Positions 2,320-9,099 of a DNA stretch of 64,000 nucleotides are shown here, one piece after another. Source of the stretch: a virus (taxonomy: Duplodnaviria; Caudoviricetes); the IMG/VR virus record IMGVR_UViG_3300021430_000310, positions 1,202 through 65,201 of that record, one strand, 5' to 3'. Both the position numbers and the translations under genes were made by a program. Below the pieces are notes generated by a model. It was not told the DNA's origin, did not search any database, and worked only from the letters and a program-made list of their open reading frames with translations. Every line of letters begins with the position of its first letter. The first letter of the stretch is position 1.

Positions 2320-3264
2320 ATGGGAAGACCGTTAAACAAGAGATTCTTTGATCCAGTACCAGCCTCAAATGGAGAAGGTGTGGCCAGTGTGACTGTGAAC
2401 AATGCTGACAGAGGCAACTATGCTGCCCTCACCACTGTGACATTTAGTGCACCTGAACTACCAGGCGGCACAACAGCCACGGGCAGTGTGATCATGGAAT
2501 TGCGATCAGTAGCTATCAACAATGGTGGTGGCTCTTATACAGCAGGTGATGTGCTTGTGATTGGTGGCGGAGCAGTTGTGGGAGACACCACAGCAGGCAC
2601 ATACACTGCACAAGCTGAAATTGAAGTTGCTACAGTTAATGCTGGCACCGGAGAGATCCTAACATTTGAGGTACTGAGTGTCAGGGGAGCGTATTCTGCA
2701 CTACCCAGTAAGGTAGCCGGAGGCAGCAACACCACAAACTTGAGCCTGGATGGTGGCACAGGCAACAATGCCAGAGTGGACATCACCTGGAGAGTGAAAG
2801 AAGTCACTGTCTCAGACGCAGGCGCTGGTTACGTGGCTGCTCCCACTGTGACATTCTCAGCTGGCACAGGTGGTGATACTGCAAGCGCAAGTGCTGTGGC
2901 GCTCACAACCACAGGCACCAACGTGATCCTGGCTCATGCCTGGGTGGTGGGTGGCAGTGAGGCACTGGATGCAGACATCATCAAGCAGACCAGCACAAAT
3001 GAATATGTGATGGCCACAACTGAAGGTGAAAGCATTGTGACACTGGTTGCAGATGCCACACCCACAGAAGGTCAAGCTTACATCCAGGCCACAGATGCTA
3101 ACGGCAGCACATACTTTGTCACCAAGCTGACTGCACATTTGGCAGTGCTGGAGCAATGGAGTGTGAACGGCTCATTTGTGTATGCTTCCGGAGAGGATGC
3201 GCCCTGGAGCTTTGACATCAGCACAGACGCAGAAGGTCAGGTTGTGCAGATTGAAAGTGCATAA
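2320..3264 (+). CDS. Virion structural protein (G/T/A-rich beta-repeat)
   Basis: MGRPLNKRFF start with AAGGAGA SD; V...GxGY..APTVTFS repeats; late promoter upstream. Confidence 0.7.
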   Translation: MGRPLNKRFFDPVPASNGEGVASVTVNNADRGNYAALTTVTFSAPELPGGTTATGSVIMELRSVAINNGGGSYTAGDVLVIGGGAVVGDTTAGTYTAQAEIEVATVNAGTGEILTFEVLSVRGAYSALPSKVAGGSNTTNLSLDGGTGNNARVDITWRVKEVTVSDAGAGYVAAPTVTFSAGTGGDTASASAVALTTTGTNVILAHAWVVGGSEALDADIIKQTSTNEYVMATTEGESIVTLVADATPTEGQAYIQATDANGSTYFVTKLTAHLAVLEQWSVNGSFVYASGEDAPWSFDISTDAEGQVVQIESA

Positions 3265-3355
3265 TTAACAGATCAGCCAAGGGAAGTGGTAAAACCCTGG
3301 CAGACTCAGTGACGCCCTCAAGCAAGCCCGAGCGAACTTGAGGGTGTCGCCTTGA

Positions 3356-4243
3356 TTACCATTTCACATAAGCTGATCGAATACTTGCGCCACAGTTTGT
3401 GATATCCAAGGGCTGCATGAGTTCAGGCATATATGAGGAAGGTCCCTGTGTGAGTGTGACAGCATCCACATACATGCTGAACTTGCCCTCCTCACTTGTC
3501 ACCAGCACCTGCGGAATCTCCAGCTCTTTGAGCAAATCCCCAAACTGCTGCACAAAGGCAGTGTCCACACCCAGCATGCTGATCTTGGCACGCCAATGTG
3601 GCTTGCGATCACGCCTGAGCCCGAGTAGTGTGTCCAGGCCTGTCATGTCATGTGGTGCATGTGCTGCACCAAACCCCACTGGCTTGTAGCCCAACAGGAG
3701 CAGATCCACACCTGTATCCCAACAGGCATCCAGCAGCTGAGCAGTTTCTGAAATGTCCACACTACCCACCACATGCTGGGCTGTGATCTGCACCCGGCGA
3801 TCGCCCCAGCCACGCTGGCCATTCAGCACATGCTCAATCTTGGAGACCTTGTTGAGCTGATGTGCATCATGCACACTCACACCAATTGCACCCACTGTGT
3901 TCTGCACAGTGCGCACCAGGCCCACATTCTGCAACCAATCCACACCAAATGTGGTGAAGTTGGGCACAATACCTCGCTCATGAGCATACTGCAACACTTC
4001 TGCAAGATGTGGATAATGAGTGGGTTCACCGCCACCCAGAGCCACTTCAAACACCTGCATTTCAGCTAGTGCATCCAGAACATGCTTGATGTTATCCAGA
4101 TCACCATGTTTGCCCTTGGGCGTGCTACCCTGATAGCAGTTGTGCACCAGCATGCCATTGGCCCAGTAATTATGATTGGGAGGGGTGCCAAAGTTATACA
4201 CTTTGCCCTTATACTGGCTCTTCTTGATACTCTTGATCTTCAC
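3356..4243 (-). CDS. Split-intein C-fragment (35 aa) fused to radical SAM C-extein
   Basis: MKIKSIKK..VYNF....HNYWANGMLVHN then C+1 YQGS, followed by the radical SAM core (ALGGGEPT, PNFTT, VGAIGVSVH). Confidence 0.92.
   Translation of the reverse strand: MKIKSIKKSQYKGKVYNFGTPPNHNYWANGMLVHNCYQGSTPKGKHGDLDNIKHVLDALAEMQVFEVALGGGEPTHYPHLAEVLQYAHERGIVPNFTTFGVDWLQNVGLVRTVQNTVGAIGVSVHDAHQLNKVSKIEHVLNGQRGWGDRRVQITAQHVVGSVDISETAQLLDACWDTGVDLLLLGYKPVGFGAAHAPHDMTGLDTLLGLRRDRKPHWRAKISMLGVDTAFVQQFGDLLKELEIPQVLVTSEEGKFSMYVDAVTLTQGPSSYMPELMQPLDITNCGASIRSAYVKW
4139..4243 (-). other. IntC of a naturally split intein
   Basis: Block F VYNF and block G HN/C; Lys-rich N-terminus. Confidence 0.92.
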
Positions 4244-4245
4244 GG

Positions 4246-5196
4246 TTATCTCCTAGCCGGATCAATTATTCTATGGCATGGTACACAAACCACTCTACCA
4301 GTAATTTGTTCATGCTTCTTAATCACTAGTTGTGTTATAGCTTCCAGTTCAGCTTCAGTCAACAAGTTAATATCTACCCCATTTAGGCATTCTGCAAGGC
4401 ACTCCTTGAATGATTGAGATTCATGATGCACTTCAAGCTTTGTGTCTTTAGCACCACATTCTTCACACTTGAACTGTGCCTTCTCTAAATGAGGGAAGGT
4501 CCACACAGGATACAGCCTGGTCCGGATGGTTTGGGTTCTCACTCTGTTACCCTTCCAGTTACCATGTGCAGGACCTTTGGGTAAACTTCTGCCCTTCAAC
4601 TTTGATTGAACAACAGCCTTAACTTCAGGTCTCTTCATAGGATTATCATTAATCATGCGCTCTCTAGAGCGTTCACGCTGCTCTTCAGTCATAACTGGTC
4701 TATATGCAGTTCCTGCCCTGCGACCATTCTCTTGCATCTTCTGCCTATACTCAGGATCAGTCTCAAACCTCGTCTTGTTGGTTTGACTCACTCGTTCCGC
4801 TACTTCTGGGTCATGCATAGGATTGTGTTCGGTTAACCATTTACTCCTTAATAGAGAAGTCTCCTGCTTGCATTTGTCACAAACCTTATGTGGCTTTGTG
4901 GTGCCTGCTCGTGTAAGAGCTTTAATAAATGTGCCCATCACATCACCGCAGTTGGTGCAGACCAACTGCGCTTCAATAGTCTTGAAGTTTTTAGGCCTTT
5001 TAACAGTCTTGCATGTGCTACACAGGCTAGAGTTACGAGACCCCACATATGACTGCCCACAATGATTGCAAGCCTTTTCAGCTTGTCTTTTGGCGTAAGC
5101 TAGATTTCGAGCTTCAGTAGAGCATGCAGGGCTGCAATACCTACCGTTGGTCTTTTTGTCAAAGCTGTTTGAACAAATTCCGCAAGTGATTATCAT
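4246..5196 (-). mobile_element. Free-standing HNH homing endonuclease with N-terminal Cys-rich Zn-binding repeats, inserted inside the intein
   Basis: CEECG..LEVHH...VCVPCH; multiple CxxC; NPM repeats; more AT-rich than flanks; start reassigned to ATG 5196 (CAGGAG 9 nt upstream). Confidence 0.85.
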
Positions 5197-5231
5197 AAAT
5201 ATGTGCTCCTGTATTTGCACATATTTATGAT
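5192..5231 (-). promoter_or_regulatory. 15-bp hairpin holding a late promoter (TAAATA, 5222-5227) in its 5' arm and the HNH start codon in its 3' arm
   Basis: Perfect inverted repeat ATCATAAATATGTGC / GCACATATTTATGAT with a 10-nt loop carrying most of the SD. Confidence 0.85.
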
Positions 5232-5238
5232 TATGACA

Positions 5239-6180
5239 TCAACCAGCTTCTCTTATGTGCAGAATCTCATCATTTTCTTCACATAGGCTAGCTGGCACCC
5301 AACCCTTGGTCTTGACATAAATTTCATGTTCTGGTGTGATACAAACCTTCACACCATTTTCCATTTCAATCTCGTATAGGTCTCCTTCGTAATCTCTCTC
5401 ATAAGTCTCAGCCACAGTTGCAGACTCAACAATTGATAGATCTGTGTTATACGAAAGGACCTCTTGGCCTTGAGAGATTTGTTCAATAGGCATAACCCCT
5501 GTTGGTGTGCTGATCATAGTTCCAGGCACAAGGCAGAATGCACATTTGTACAGGCAGTAGTCAGATAGCTTGATGTCCACTAATTCTGGCACCGTGCTCT
5601 TCACATATTCAGGCGCATCAGGCAGAAAGCTCACACGCATCTTGGCACCTGAATGTGGATTGAACATGCTCCAATAGTCATGATCTCTGCGCACAACATT
5701 GTCATGGCCCCAATTGAAGGCATCAGTGCGATGATCTGTGTAGCTGTTGGCTGGGGGGTCCTGACCATCAGAGTTGTCGTTGCCACCCAGGATGATCACA
5801 TCATCACGCTTGACAAACTCATGCATGTGCTGCACCAGTTCAGGATGCTTGCGGAACATGGTGCCCAGGTTGCCCCACACACTCTGATGGTCCACACCGT
5901 AATCTGAAAAGTCATCAACTGAATATTCAGTTGATAGCAGACTGTTCACAGCATGCACAATCTCAGATTTCTCCATGTGTGCATCTTCCAGAGTCTGCAT
6001 GAGCTGGGTCACAAAGTAGGCACTCTTGCTGTCTGGATCAGCTAGTGTGAACTGTTCCCAATTGTAGCTGAAACGGTTGTATTCATCTGTGAATTCTCGT
6101 TGACCACGTGGGATCATCACAATGGAATGGCTGCTGCTGGAGTTGGTGGCGAAACCCACCCGCAGATTGTGAACTTTCAT
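5239..6180 (-). CDS. Radical SAM N-extein (with GFATNSSSSHS domain) fused to split-intein N-fragment
   Basis: ELVDIKLSDYCLYKCAF then CLVPGTMISTPTG..TPEH..GWV; stop after 98 intein residues. Confidence 0.92.
   Translation of the reverse strand: MKVHNLRVGFATNSSSSHSIVMIPRGQREFTDEYNRFSYNWEQFTLADPDSKSAYFVTQLMQTLEDAHMEKSEIVHAVNSLLSTEYSVDDFSDYGVDHQSVWGNLGTMFRKHPELVQHMHEFVKRDDVIILGGNDNSDGQDPPANSYTDHRTDAFNWGHDNVVRRDHDYWSMFNPHSGAKMRVSFLPDAPEYVKSTVPELVDIKLSDYCLYKCAFCLVPGTMISTPTGVMPIEQISQGQEVLSYNTDLSIVESATVAETYERDYEGDLYEIEMENGVKVCITPEHEIYVKTKGWVPASLCEENDEILHIREAG
5242..5535 (-). other. IntN of a naturally split intein (98 aa)
   Basis: C1 block A CLVPGT, block B TPEH, acidic C-terminus EENDE. Confidence 0.92.
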
Positions 6181-6230
6181 TAAGGATCATCCTGTTATGT
6201 GACCACATGATAACAGGTAGACGCATTATG

Positions 6231-6731
6231 TCAAACTAATTGTCTGATATCCAGTACATCCAGATTCTTTCCCACATCTTTTATGAAGTAAACACATGCA
6301 GGATTGGGCTTCTGTTCCACAGGCACAGCCAGAAAGTGCCCCACTTTGAGTTTGGGGAAACACCATTTGACATCTGCAAACACATTCACAATTTCCACAT
6401 CAAAAAAGTCAGGCATGAAGCCTCCAATGGGATTGAATGCAAATGCTTGAAACTGTTTGTCCATGATGTCCACCAAGCGACACACTTCTAAATCACCTGC
6501 ATGTTTGTCACCCACCACCACATGCCAATCCAAGGGCATCTGTATGTTGTGACGGCCCACTTTCAAATCTGCACATGGCGAATGAAATATGTCCAGGAAC
6601 ACCAGGGGTGGCCAATAATAGTCTATGTGATCTTTGTCTGAATAATCCAACACACAATAGCGCAAGTCATCCACTTTGTCAGGCATGGTGTTCAAATTGA
6701 AGGCCTGGTTGTCCACTGTTAATATTCGCAT
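6231..6731 (-). CDS. Conserved-looking hypothetical protein downstream of uvsW
   Basis: 166-aa ORF, co-oriented; TAAATA at 6737-6742. Confidence 0.75.
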   Translation of the reverse strand: MRILTVDNQAFNLNTMPDKVDDLRYCVLDYSDKDHIDYYWPPLVFLDIFHSPCADLKVGRHNIQMPLDWHVVVGDKHAGDLEVCRLVDIMDKQFQAFAFNPIGGFMPDFFDVEIVNVFADVKWCFPKLKVGHFLAVPVEQKPNPACVYFIKDVGKNLDVLDIRQLV

Positions 6732-6759: not shown

Positions 6760-8217
6760 TCACAAAATTATCTTACGAACCTCAAAGGGATATTCAGCAT
6801 TCTTGTAGAACTGTTTACGTTTGAGTAGATGGTTATTTGAGAACTTCATCTTACTACAAACATCTATCACCATGACTCTGTCTTTGTCATCCGCCATTCT
6901 CAAACCTCTACCAATACTCTGGATGGTTCGCACAAATGATTTCCCAGCTTCCACCAACACCAGATTGAAGATTCTGTTGATTGAAATGCCTGTGCTGGTG
7001 GTGCCATATGTGGCAATCATGATCCGGTTGTCAGCAAAGTTGATGTCTTTGTAGTGGGCACGACGATCTGCGCTCTTCATTTCACCACTAATGAACACAG
7101 CACCGGAAATCTGGTTATACAGCTTCTGACCAGTTTCAATGCGATCCACCAACACCAGTGTGTTACCGGATTCACCCAGCTTTTCAATCTCTTCTGCCAA
7201 CCACTTCAATCTCATGTCATTTGTGACAAGGTATTTGAGCTCATCCTGATAGTTGGCATATTGAGCTGATTCCTGAGTCTGCCACACATGCACATCACAC
7301 TTGGCCAACACCCCCTTGTCTTGCAGCTCTTTGGCAGTCAGCTTGCCAATCTCAGGACCTATAGCTGAGAACAGCCCCATCTGTTTGAAGTCTTCTTCAG
7401 GAATGGTGCCTGTGAGTCCCCACCTGATGGGTATGTGTTTGAACACAGTGGTCAACAGCTTGTGTAGTACATTAGTGTCCTTTACTGCGTGACACTCGTC
7501 CACTATGATGGCCACCAGACCTTTCATGAACTTCTCCATCTGATCAGCATCCAGGAAGTCTTTGTGCTTCTTGTCCAGCACACTCAGACTCTGCCAGGTG
7601 CAGATGGTGTGGGTGCATTCATATTCTTTGCGATCACCAAACAGCACACCCACATCCAGACCCAGGTTGCGATAATCTTCCTCAGTCTGTTGCACCAGGT
7701 TCTTGTTGGGCACAATCACAATGGTGCGTCCGTAAGGTTGCACCATCTTGCTGAGTGTGGCAGTCACCAAAGTCTTGCCCGCACTAGTTGGGAGCACCTG
7801 CACACCTTGCAGGTTTTGCAAACAACAGTTGATGGCATCTGCCTGATAGTCTCTCAGTTCAATTGGTTGACCTGCGAAACGATGCCCATGAGGCCAAGTC
7901 TGATCACTCAGATATGATTCATCCACAGTGTCAAATTCAAACTTGTGATACGCTCGCTGATCCTGAATGTCAATTTCATAGTTATGAGCCTGCAGGATGG
8001 GGATCAGACGGTCCAGACAGTTCAAATAGGTCTTACCAGCCATGGTCATGAAGCTTGTGCAACCATCCCATCGCCCCATCTTGAAAGCTCGAGAATATCT
8101 AGCTGATGGCAGAAAGAACTGAACTGCTTTAATCATGGCTCGCTTGACTGGCAGATCCACATCCTTGATGGTGATGTTAACTTCATCTTCAATAATAATC
8201 TTGGCTACATTGTCCAT
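6760..8217 (-). CDS. uvsW: UvsW-like SF2 DNA helicase
   Basis: PTSAGKT, DECH, GLTGT, QSIGRGLR motifs. Confidence 0.92.
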   Translation of the reverse strand: MDNVAKIIIEDEVNITIKDVDLPVKRAMIKAVQFFLPSARYSRAFKMGRWDGCTSFMTMAGKTYLNCLDRLIPILQAHNYEIDIQDQRAYHKFEFDTVDESYLSDQTWPHGHRFAGQPIELRDYQADAINCCLQNLQGVQVLPTSAGKTLVTATLSKMVQPYGRTIVIVPNKNLVQQTEEDYRNLGLDVGVLFGDRKEYECTHTICTWQSLSVLDKKHKDFLDADQMEKFMKGLVAIIVDECHAVKDTNVLHKLLTTVFKHIPIRWGLTGTIPEEDFKQMGLFSAIGPEIGKLTAKELQDKGVLAKCDVHVWQTQESAQYANYQDELKYLVTNDMRLKWLAEEIEKLGESGNTLVLVDRIETGQKLYNQISGAVFISGEMKSADRRAHYKDINFADNRIMIATYGTTSTGISINRIFNLVLVEAGKSFVRTIQSIGRGLRMADDKDRVMVIDVCSKMKFSNNHLLKRKQFYKNAEYPFEVRKIIL

Positions 8218-8452: not shown

Positions 8453-8920
8453 TCACACTGTGATGATCTGATCAAAGCCTTCTGCCTCAGTGGGAGGCTC
8501 TAGCTGGCTCTTCATGCCCGCAATAACATTGGCAGGAATGGTCTTACCCACACGACTGGCCAAACGACGTGCATGTTCTGCGCGGTCAGGAGTGCGGAAC
8601 ATCACAGCCACCCGCTCATATGAATCAGGCACCATGGCAAGCTTTTTGGCACGTGCAGCAGCCACCACATTGGTCTGATCCCAGATGAGATCTGCACCCT
8701 GACTGACAGCATCTGCCAGCATCTGATACATCTCTGTAGTGGCGCTCTTGATCTCCTTGCGGAACACCTGATCATAAGTCTTGCCCTGTGCAGCAGCCCT
8801 GCGCTCAATAATGGCATCAGTGCTCAGGATCACAGTGCGGTTCCAGTCAAAGGGCTGTTGAGCCAGCCAAGTGCTCTTGCCTGCACCAGGTACTCCGATC
8901 AGCATGTATAGCTTGGGCAT
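8453..8920 (-). CDS. P-loop kinase (AAA_33 / polynucleotide kinase-like)
   Basis: LIGVPGAGKST, STD, IWDQTN..R, EPPTEAEGFD. Confidence 0.85.
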   Translation of the reverse strand: MPKLYMLIGVPGAGKSTWLAQQPFDWNRTVILSTDAIIERRAAAQGKTYDQVFRKEIKSATTEMYQMLADAVSQGADLIWDQTNVVAAARAKKLAMVPDSYERVAVMFRTPDRAEHARRLASRVGKTIPANVIAGMKSQLEPPTEAEGFDQIITV

Positions 8921-9099
8921 CACTTGACCTCCACACACATGGTGAGAATCCTACGGGCACCAAGATTCACCTGCACCTGTTGAATCTGAGTGGCCTGAGC
9001 CAGACAGTTATCACGTGAGCTAAAACCACTCACATGTTCCATGGAACTGTTACCAGCAGCATTAGCCAACAGCATGATCACCAAGGTCCATGTGCTCAT
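8920..9099 (-). CDS. Small exported two-Cys protein (59 aa; not in ORF track)
   Basis: MSTWTLVIMLLANAAG..VSGFSSRDNC..TMCVEVK; stop overlaps next start. Confidence 0.6.
   Translation of the reverse strand: MSTWTLVIMLLANAAGNSSMEHVSGFSSRDNCLAQATQIQQVQVNLGARRILTMCVEVK

Follow-up and report, generated by a model that had tools for sequence, protein, structure and literature searches.

How can a radical S-adenosylmethionine (SAM) enzyme be made from a gene that is broken in two inside its iron-sulfur cluster motif, with another gene lying in the break? This question is raised by a locus in a 64,000-nucleotide stretch of viral DNA (hereafter the window; bases 1202-65201 of the 65.2-kb IMG/VR viral contig IMGVR_UViG_3300021430_000310). 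Here, three consecutive open reading frames (ORFs), all on the minus strand, encode an N-terminal enzyme segment (N-extein) joined to the N-terminal half of a split intein (IntN), a free-standing endonuclease, and the C-terminal intein half (IntC) joined to the remainder of the enzyme (C-extein). Judged from the sequence, this is very probably a fractured radical SAM gene with a class 1 split intein and an HNH gene in the gap, whose halves would be joined by protein trans-splicing into a 475-aa enzyme. What carries this reading is the anatomy of the locus, the conservation of the catalytic residues, the collinearity of the exteins with intact alleles, the sporadic distribution of the intein, and the predicted pairing of the two intein halves. 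The ORFs and the segments of the two halves are as follows (a slash marks a splice junction).

6180..5239, minus strand: N-half ORF (N-extein plus IntN), 313 aa, ending ...DYCLYKCAF/CLVPGT...TPEH...EENDEILHIREAG and a stop codon

5220/5196..4246, minus strand: middle ORF, the endonuclease, with an in-frame GTG at 5220 upstream of the ATG at 5196

4243..3356, minus strand: C-half ORF (IntC plus C-extein), 295 aa, GTG start, MKIKSIKK...MLVHN/CYQGST

5536..6180, minus strand: N-extein, residues 1-215, comprising an N-terminal domain and the first two cluster Cys (C209, C213) and ending ...CLYKCAF

5242..5535, minus strand: IntN, 98 aa, N-half residues 216-313, with Cys1 (block A), TPEH (block B), and an acidic tail

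4139..4243, minus strand: IntC, 35 aa, GTG start, ending ...MLVHN

3356..4138, minus strand: C-extein, 260 aa plus stop, starting with Cys+1 and continuing through the SAM-binding motif GGGEPT into the remainder of the barrel

The exact point of interruption can be read from intact homologs, a large family of about 475 aa with members up to 87% identical to the window exteins. The N-extein is collinear with residues 1-215 of the intact 475-aa homologs, and the C-extein is 79-87% identical to intact alleles; when intact and split relatives are considered together, the exteins are 79-88% identical to them and retain all family-invariant residues. Intact homologs read ...DYCxYGCAFCYQGST..., and in the alignment the window exteins abut at this place with zero gap, so that the intein sits between the Phe and the third Cys of CX3CX2C. 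The joined exteins give C-LYK-C-AF-C-YQGST, a canonical CX3CX2C. Since the insertion precedes the third Cys of this motif, the +1 splicing nucleophile is also the third [4Fe-4S] ligand. The unspliced N-half still reads C-x3-C-x2-C, with Cys1 of the intein filling the third place.

The radical SAM signal comes from Pfam and PHROGs on both sides of the break. The C-extein matches the phrog_16999 Fe-S oxidoreductase family (E 4.7e-28); the C-half alone scores 28.3 with PF04055, below the cut-off of 29.5, and the intact homologs carry a precomputed PF04055 annotation. GGGEPT is invariant among the aligned C-halves. The host gene thus has a CX3CX2C motif on joining, a GGE motif, and a partial TIM barrel, as expected of a radical SAM enzyme. 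In a structure model of the intact homolog P0010 (predicted local distance difference test score [pLDDT] 82), the closest known structures are SuiB (E 5e-11), SkfB, and CteB, all of which are peptide-modifying radical SAM maturases. The N-terminal domain of this phage family, about 200 aa, contains invariant ATNSSSxHS, DHQS, and GGNDN motifs, and PELVD is likewise invariant in the N-extein; the domain had no family match in Pfam, NCBIfam, or the ESM Atlas (none at 0.9 in the latter).

Both intein halves are recognized by standard models. In NCBIfam, the N-terminal model (intein_Nterm, TIGR01445) has a cut-off of 24.5 bits and here reaches 34.4, while the C-terminal model (intein_Cterm, TIGR01443), with a cut-off of 15.6 bits, reaches 24.2; both scores are far beyond chance. 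IntN is the single intein N-terminal match in the whole 65-kb contig, and its stop codon (5239-5241) follows residue 98. The catalytic positions are those of a splicing intein. In block A, Cys1 of CLVPGT directly follows ...CAF, and in block B, TPEH provides T282 and H285; all three residues are invariant in 20 aligned N-halves and in 25/25 others scanned by motif. These 20 aligned N-halves are 31-88% identical and share the insertion point, Cys1, and T..H unchanged. In block G, LVHN/CYQ, the residues H34, N35, and C36 are invariant in 21 C-halves, with V-H-N/C-Y-Q kept throughout; the motif scan found VHN/CYQ in 19/19 other C-halves and the corresponding C/C...T..H in the 25 N-halves. By these motifs the intein is a class 1 HINT splicing domain. 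Among sequences in the PDB, IntN is related to a bacterial intein-like (BIL) domain (2lwy, E 2.3e-9) and to the NrdJ-1 split intein (8ubs, E 2.9e-5).

The halves also have features of a naturally split intein. The break lies between blocks B and F and falls at the same point in more than 20 alleles. The net charge is -14 for IntN and +6 for IntC, and this polarity is general, with 25/25 N-halves acidic (-7 to -17) and 19/19 C-halves basic (+1 to +7). Prediction of a complex of IntN (residues 206-313) with IntC (residues 1-48) gave a score of 0.73, versus 0.01 for the best of three controls; a mark of 0.73 is reached by 58/80 solved complexes and 2/110 mismatched pairs, counts that hold only roughly here, our own alignments having been supplied. 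At least 87% of the contacts agreed among runs, and the partner pLDDT was at least 70. The modeled complex supports pairing of IntN with IntC.

The initial annotation of this DNA had placed a 98-aa IntN and a 35-aa IntC on two ORFs at 3356-6180, with an HNH gene between them and the C+1 nucleophile as third [4Fe-4S] ligand, and it had suggested that related phages be examined for intact alleles. All of this is borne out: the ORFs are as described, with both intein models above their cut-offs; joining to intact 475-aa homologs is free of gaps; and such homologs are indeed found among relatives, at up to 87% identity. Its HNH gene stands with moderate confidence, on motif, a phrog_1271 match, and fold, as described next.

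4246..5196, minus strand: free-standing endonuclease gene, 316 aa from the ATG at 5196, HNH-type by motif, PHROG, and fold

We take the ATG at 5196 as the true start of this gene because its homologs measure 316-319 aa. The protein has three N-terminal zinc-ribbon-like CxxC...CxxC units, then NPMxxPE helical repeats, and finally an HNH/beta-beta-alpha-Me domain. The latter carries a CxxC...HH...CxxCH zinc/catalytic motif, and the residues C244, C247, H257, H258, H295, C304, C307, H308, and D312 are invariant in an alignment that includes the two related split loci L022 and L071. The protein matches phrog_1271, an HNH endonuclease family, at E 1.9e-4; comparison with PDB sequences returned only noise (E of about 0.25). 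An AlphaFold model was obtained with a mean pLDDT of 78.7. When residues 217-316 of it were searched with an exhaustive structural aligner, the top three hits were all HNH proteins, namely, T5 SciA (Z 7.9, moderate support; root-mean-square deviation [rmsd] 2.6, 90 residues aligned), GVE2 HNH (Z 6.1, rmsd 4.2, 81 aligned), and EcoKMcrA (Z 5.0), with unrelated structures peaking at 4.3. We accept the gap gene as an HNH-type nuclease with moderate confidence. Eight homologs are detectable, 289-319 aa long save for one 190-aa fragment. The contigs that carry them match in size those bearing split halves (32912, 3887, 12525, 340682, 8617, and 9015 bp), and the homologs have diverged in step with the halves. 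This zinc-finger HNH family is seemingly dedicated to the radical SAM split site.

Two signals bear on the expression of the three genes.

6207..6234, minus strand: sigma-70-like promoter, TTGACA and TATCAT separated by 16 nt, the -10 being preceded by TG, at a distance of about 27 nt from the N-half start codon, upstream of it

5192..5231, minus strand: RNA hairpin, its 15-bp stem perfectly paired, at the spacer between IntN and the endonuclease gene

The promoter has 11/12 consensus matches and an extended -10; it is a consensus match only, and such sites in the region are not above shuffled expectation. A consensus scan of the minus strand inside the locus found no terminator-like site. An AGGAG precedes the endonuclease ATG by 9 nt and the IntC GTG by 6 nt. 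Relatives' IntC ORFs all begin with MKIK, so that the IntC start position is conserved. The hairpin is formed by the 42-nt spacer that follows IntN together with the first endonuclease codons; the AUG lies in its 3' arm and the AGGAG of the endonuclease at the loop/stem edge. Its folding energy is -28.9 kcal/mol (z -3.88), and 0/200 shuffled sequences were as stable. L022 has an analogous hairpin pairing its Shine-Dalgarno sequence (z -2.78); L071 has none. A T4-type late promoter at the junction (CATAAATA) was considered and rejected, TATAAATA occurring 0 times in the 64-kb window.

Very probably, a class 1 mini-intein invaded a jumbo-phage radical SAM gene at the codon of the third CX3CX2C Cys, and a free-standing zinc-finger HNH homing endonuclease gene in turn broke this intein at the site where endonucleases are canonically inserted. 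The three genes are probably cotranscribed from a promoter upstream of the N-half, each with its own ribosome-binding site, and the hairpin burying the endonuclease start codon probably holds translation of the nuclease low. The acidic IntN and the basic IntC would associate electrostatically and fold into a HINT domain, in which Cys1, TPEH, the terminal His-Asn, and Cys+1 would carry out trans-splicing, yielding a seamless 475-aa enzyme with Cys+1 as third cluster ligand. Spread of the cassette is most likely due to the endonuclease, which would cut alleles that lack the intein close to the conserved motif.

A series of states at the insertion site emerged when alleles from an exhaustive representative search were dissected. 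Intein-less alleles are the majority at the site; in IMG/VR, most of the 80 listed loci are intact, on contigs of up to 607 kb. Diverged split alleles, too, number in the dozens in metagenomes. In P0197, P0198, and P0200 (611-624 aa), the site holds a contiguous mini-intein of the same family; compared with the halves in the window, its IntN part is 38-41% identical and its IntC part 60-66%. P0229 and P0235 have, at this site, large contiguous inteins of a different lineage with LAGLIDADG domains. Of the split loci, L022 belongs to the same radical SAM family, with exteins 33% identical to those of the window, and has the full cassette, its endonuclease homolog being 34% identical. L071 belongs to a different radical SAM subfamily (...CPMTCAF/C...) and has the same endonuclease family in its gap.

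Further insertion points were seen in the same enzyme family. P0209 has an intein of the same family three residues upstream, where the +1 residue is the second cluster Cys, and P0236 has a LAGLIDADG intein 33 residues downstream of the cluster motif. Another protein from the search, P0214 (1435 aa), contains four IntN-like HINT modules, of which two precede IntC-like segments; these may be several inteins or repeated BIL domains. Two other split loci are in yet other subfamilies. At L069:4977-6392 (...CKGNCPY/C...), the same intein interrupts the gene at the same Cys, the halves lying about 150 nt apart with no ORF in the gap; on its sequence, this is a split intein that lost, or never had, an endonuclease gene. 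At L080:4797-7249 (...CSMGCLY/C...), IntN is in frame with NPMK repeats and a DUF559/Vsr-like nuclease (E 0.003) in a fused ORF of 370 aa, with IntC in a separate ORF after it. L080 could represent a transitional form between nested and free-standing endonucleases. Sharing of a DNA-binding module between the HNH protein and this Vsr-like nuclease was considered and set aside, the NPMK motif alone matching (E 0.30).

The distribution of the intein was followed on a FastTree phylogeny of 248 C-exteins (221 intact, 21 split, and 6 with a contiguous intein). The intein-bearing state (27/248) changes 22 times on this tree, versus a mean of 26 after shuffling, and at least 15 of the changes are forced by branches with at least 95% local support. 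The nearest neighbors of the window C-extein are intact alleles. Such near-random scatter is expected from repeated gain and loss by homing and, on these sequences, marks a mobile element; for homing by the endonuclease itself, it is indirect support. A scan of 185,579 species-representative cellular genomes, including a search for the pattern LVHNCYQ[GSD], returned 46 loci, all intein-less and none with the nuclease. This suggests that the cassette is restricted to phages, although such a scan does not prove absence from cells. A co-conversion footprint was sought at the relative L011, where flanking proteins are about 90% identical to those of the window and the radical SAM gene only 57-65%; DNA identity is 70-80% throughout the locus, and the profile was too noisy to accept one.

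The locus belongs to a large uncultured phage from freshwater. CheckV puts the contig at only about 17% complete, which implies a very large phage. Near-identical DNA is present in freshwater metagenomes, and a wastewater metagenome holds a variant 92-97% identical; both cassette junctions (IntN/HNH and HNH/IntC) are bridged by contigs of an independent wastewater metagenome. Megablast of the locus against GenBank phage records gave no match. The gene order helicase, phrog_11279 protein, radical SAM gene is common to the window and to relatives with an intact allele. The helicase of this neighborhood, a superfamily 2 protein (window 6760-8217), is intact in the window and interrupted in relatives: two helicase segments flank an IntN-like match (2206-2493) at L020:1483-4257, two lie about 1 kb apart at L011:1846-4413, and in L007 and L008 a 28%-identical helicase has a contiguous mini-intein of the same family. 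Fractured genes with a nuclease gene in the gap were also seen for a DEAH-type helicase (L004:5500-8445) and a ligase-like protein (L010:5731-8272); the nuclease of the latter looks Vsr-like by eye only. The IntC halves of both start nearly as that of the window does, with MKIKSIKK, and belong to the same intein family. Two genes from the locus, at window 8453-8938, a P-loop kinase-like ORF matches polynucleotide kinase and ATPase families in PHROGs; it adjoins the helicase in some relatives, too.

Several points weigh against the account given above. That the halves trans-splice, and at what rate, is something we infer from DNA-level sequence and models. The same holds for the target of the nuclease, for the regulation of the genes, and for two ideas of the initial annotation, namely, that no enzyme can form before the halves are joined and that loading of the cluster is gated by splicing. 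Position 4 of block F is Asn (VYNFG, N17) rather than Asp, in the window and invariantly in the family. The complex score may echo solved split-intein structures, and so show likeness to them rather than prove binding. As for the gap gene, it has no Pfam HNH match (E up to 0.1), Foldseek found nothing significant for its model (E 0.34), and the best structural match, with Z below 8, is within reach of common fold arrangements. Its co-occurrence and pairing with split halves on other contigs were judged from identical contig sizes. The tree was built from a hit list biased by intein-bearing queries, and many of its FastTree branches are weakly supported. Active inteins commonly, though not always, have Asp at this position of block F, and we therefore do not take the Asn to exclude class 1.

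Could the two halves simply bind through their intein fragments, without splicing, and work as a noncovalent heterodimer, as fragmented ribonucleotide reductases do? Such assembly by interaction domains derived from mobile elements is described, as far as the cited account goes, for a fragmented phage ribonucleotide reductase (PMC3045599), and NrdA of phage Aeh1 works in pieces (PMC2677866). The Asn in block F would fit this picture, as would the C-x3-C-x2-C that the N-half completes with its own Cys1. We nevertheless consider a heterodimer of this kind improbable. Despite divergence to 31-40% identity, Cys1, T..H, H-N, and Cys+1 are invariant in 25 N-halves and 19 C-halves, which would be unexpected if the role of the fragments were only to bind; and where the same intein is contiguous (P0197 and others), only splicing can free the cluster motif. 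It is also quite improbable that the halves are a decaying, functionless pseudogene pair left behind by endonuclease invasion. Most alleles in the family are intact, the intein-bearing state being rare, and with so little of the genome on the contig a second, intact copy elsewhere is conceivable. Yet each half is an open frame of full length, preceded by a Shine-Dalgarno sequence of its own, the exteins keep every family-invariant residue at 79-88% identity to relatives, the split state persists down to about 33% extein identity (L022), and the 65-kb contig has only the one intein N-terminal match.

An interruption removed at the level of nucleic acid, by a group I intron carrying an HNH ORF or by translational bypass, would leave a mini-intein to splice in cis. 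Phage group I introns commonly carry HNH endonuclease ORFs, and there is a strong hairpin at the 5' junction. RNA splicing had been named at the outset as an outcome that would overturn trans-splicing; a permissive Rfam scan of positions 3000-6600 returned neither a group I intron nor any other RNA family of relevance, and no joined, cassette-less form was seen in four sets of DNA contigs, within the parts of the locus that they covered. Furthermore, IntN is closed by a stop codon, IntC is provided with a separate ribosome-binding site and GTG, and relatives keep the same positions for these; at L069, the halves are separated by only about 150 nt with no ORF. This route seems to us extremely unlikely, and trans-splicing of the two halves is the explanation that we favor.

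A more ambitious version of trans-splicing is possible, but we hold it to be doubtful. It would combine conditional splicing, gated by redox state or cluster loading, with hopping of the cassette among nonorthologous radical SAM genes, making the motif a superfamily-wide hotspot. The idea of conditional splicing arises because the N-half keeps a full C-x3-C-x2-C and because its Cys-3 and Cys1 match the geometry of a redox trap described for a MoaA intein (see below). Oxidation, or binding of metal or a cluster to the precursor, might hold back the first splicing step, so that an oxygen-labile enzyme would mature only in reducing conditions. As to hopping, the cassette might target the DNA of the motif common to radical SAM genes; L069, L071, and L080 are in different subfamilies. 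Were the hotspot to be real, it would offer a natural series of every stage of split-intein evolution.

The locus adds a new host class, radical SAM, and a new nuclease type, zinc-finger HNH, to naturally fractured genes. The intein halves are a new natural pair, about 30% identical to NrdJ-1, and a candidate orthogonal tool for protein ligation with native Cys+1 junctions. With a [4Fe-4S] ligand as its +1 nucleophile and a Cys at -3 in its N-extein, the system is suited to asking whether redox state or cluster loading gates splicing, after the example of MoaA. The single insertion site presents all the proposed states, i.e., empty, mini-intein, LAGLIDADG intein, IntN-nuclease fusion, and split with or without a free-standing nuclease, so that phylogenetic and biochemical work can put the gene-breaking model of 2009 directly to the test. 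The interest of the locus lies in this complete evolutionary series at one site, in a splicing nucleophile that is also a metal ligand, and in the possible redox gate.

How does this locus compare with known systems? Fractured genes were described by Dassa, London, Stoddard, Schueler-Furman, and Pietrokovski in 2009 at gp41, NrdA, NrdJ, IMPDH, DnaE, and other loci (PMC2677866), and the initial annotation was right to recognize the same layout here. As in those genes, an enzyme gene of phage origin is halved on one strand, with a split-intein half on each part; the break falls between blocks B and F, where endonucleases are canonically inserted; the charges of the halves are complementary; and the gap contains an endonuclease gene with control elements of its own. 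L022 and L071 likewise have a free-standing endonuclease gene lying between tagged halves, all on one strand. The endonucleases of the fractured genes in that study were GIY-YIG and Vsr-like only, with HNH suggested as capable of the same role (PMC2677866). The present locus differs from them in its radical SAM host, its zinc-finger HNH nuclease, and a +1 nucleophile that is a metal-cluster ligand. With respect to polarity, the N-negative/C-positive arrangement is that of cyanobacterial DnaE, NrdJ-1, IMPDH-1, and NrdA-2, whereas gp41-1 and gp41-8 are the opposite (PMC2677866). Thus, the likeness in charge that had been drawn to both DnaE and gp41-1 holds for DnaE and fails for gp41-1.

NrdJ-1 (PDB 8ubs) is the nearest experimentally used split intein, at E 1.7e-9 to the contiguous allele P0197. 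It shares the acidic-N/basic-C polarity and the ...LVHN C-terminus, whereas identity is about 30% over 74 aligned IntN residues, the +1 residue is Ser rather than Cys, and both host and insertion site are different. Another comparison is with nrdA-mobE of Aeromonas phage Aeh1, a case of genes in pieces (Friedrich et al. 2007, cited in PMC2677866). As far as the citing account describes it, there, too, an HNH-type gene lies between two enzyme-gene halves, which are cotranscribed while translation of the nuclease is restricted. Unlike the window locus, Aeh1 is described as having no intein, with halves that assemble noncovalently, and a T4-type late promoter is unsupported here.

The closest precedent by host is the intein of Pyrococcus abyssi MoaA (Callahan et al. 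2011), a contiguous intein in which, according to the available accounts, a Cys-3/Cys1 disulfide blocks splicing until conditions become reducing (PMC3922620, PMC10663303). Like the window gene, its host is a radical SAM enzyme with Cys-3 and Cys1, here in the geometry C213-A-F/C216, and its insertion site would seem to be the same, to judge from the description of these two Cys. In contrast to that contiguous, archaeal intein in another radical SAM family, as it is described, the window intein is split and in a phage. The initial annotation had suggested that a split intein in a radical SAM host might be new. Full-text literature searches, which left subscription journals uncovered, returned no description of one, including this exact split intein, so that the novelty appears to stand for the split form, while for a radical SAM intein as such the contiguous MoaA intein, as those accounts present it, came before. 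What appears to be new, then, is the split form in a radical SAM gene, the phage host family, and the zinc-finger HNH type of nuclease; the cassette itself is real, conserved, and mobile and, in its mechanism, ordinary for a fractured gene.

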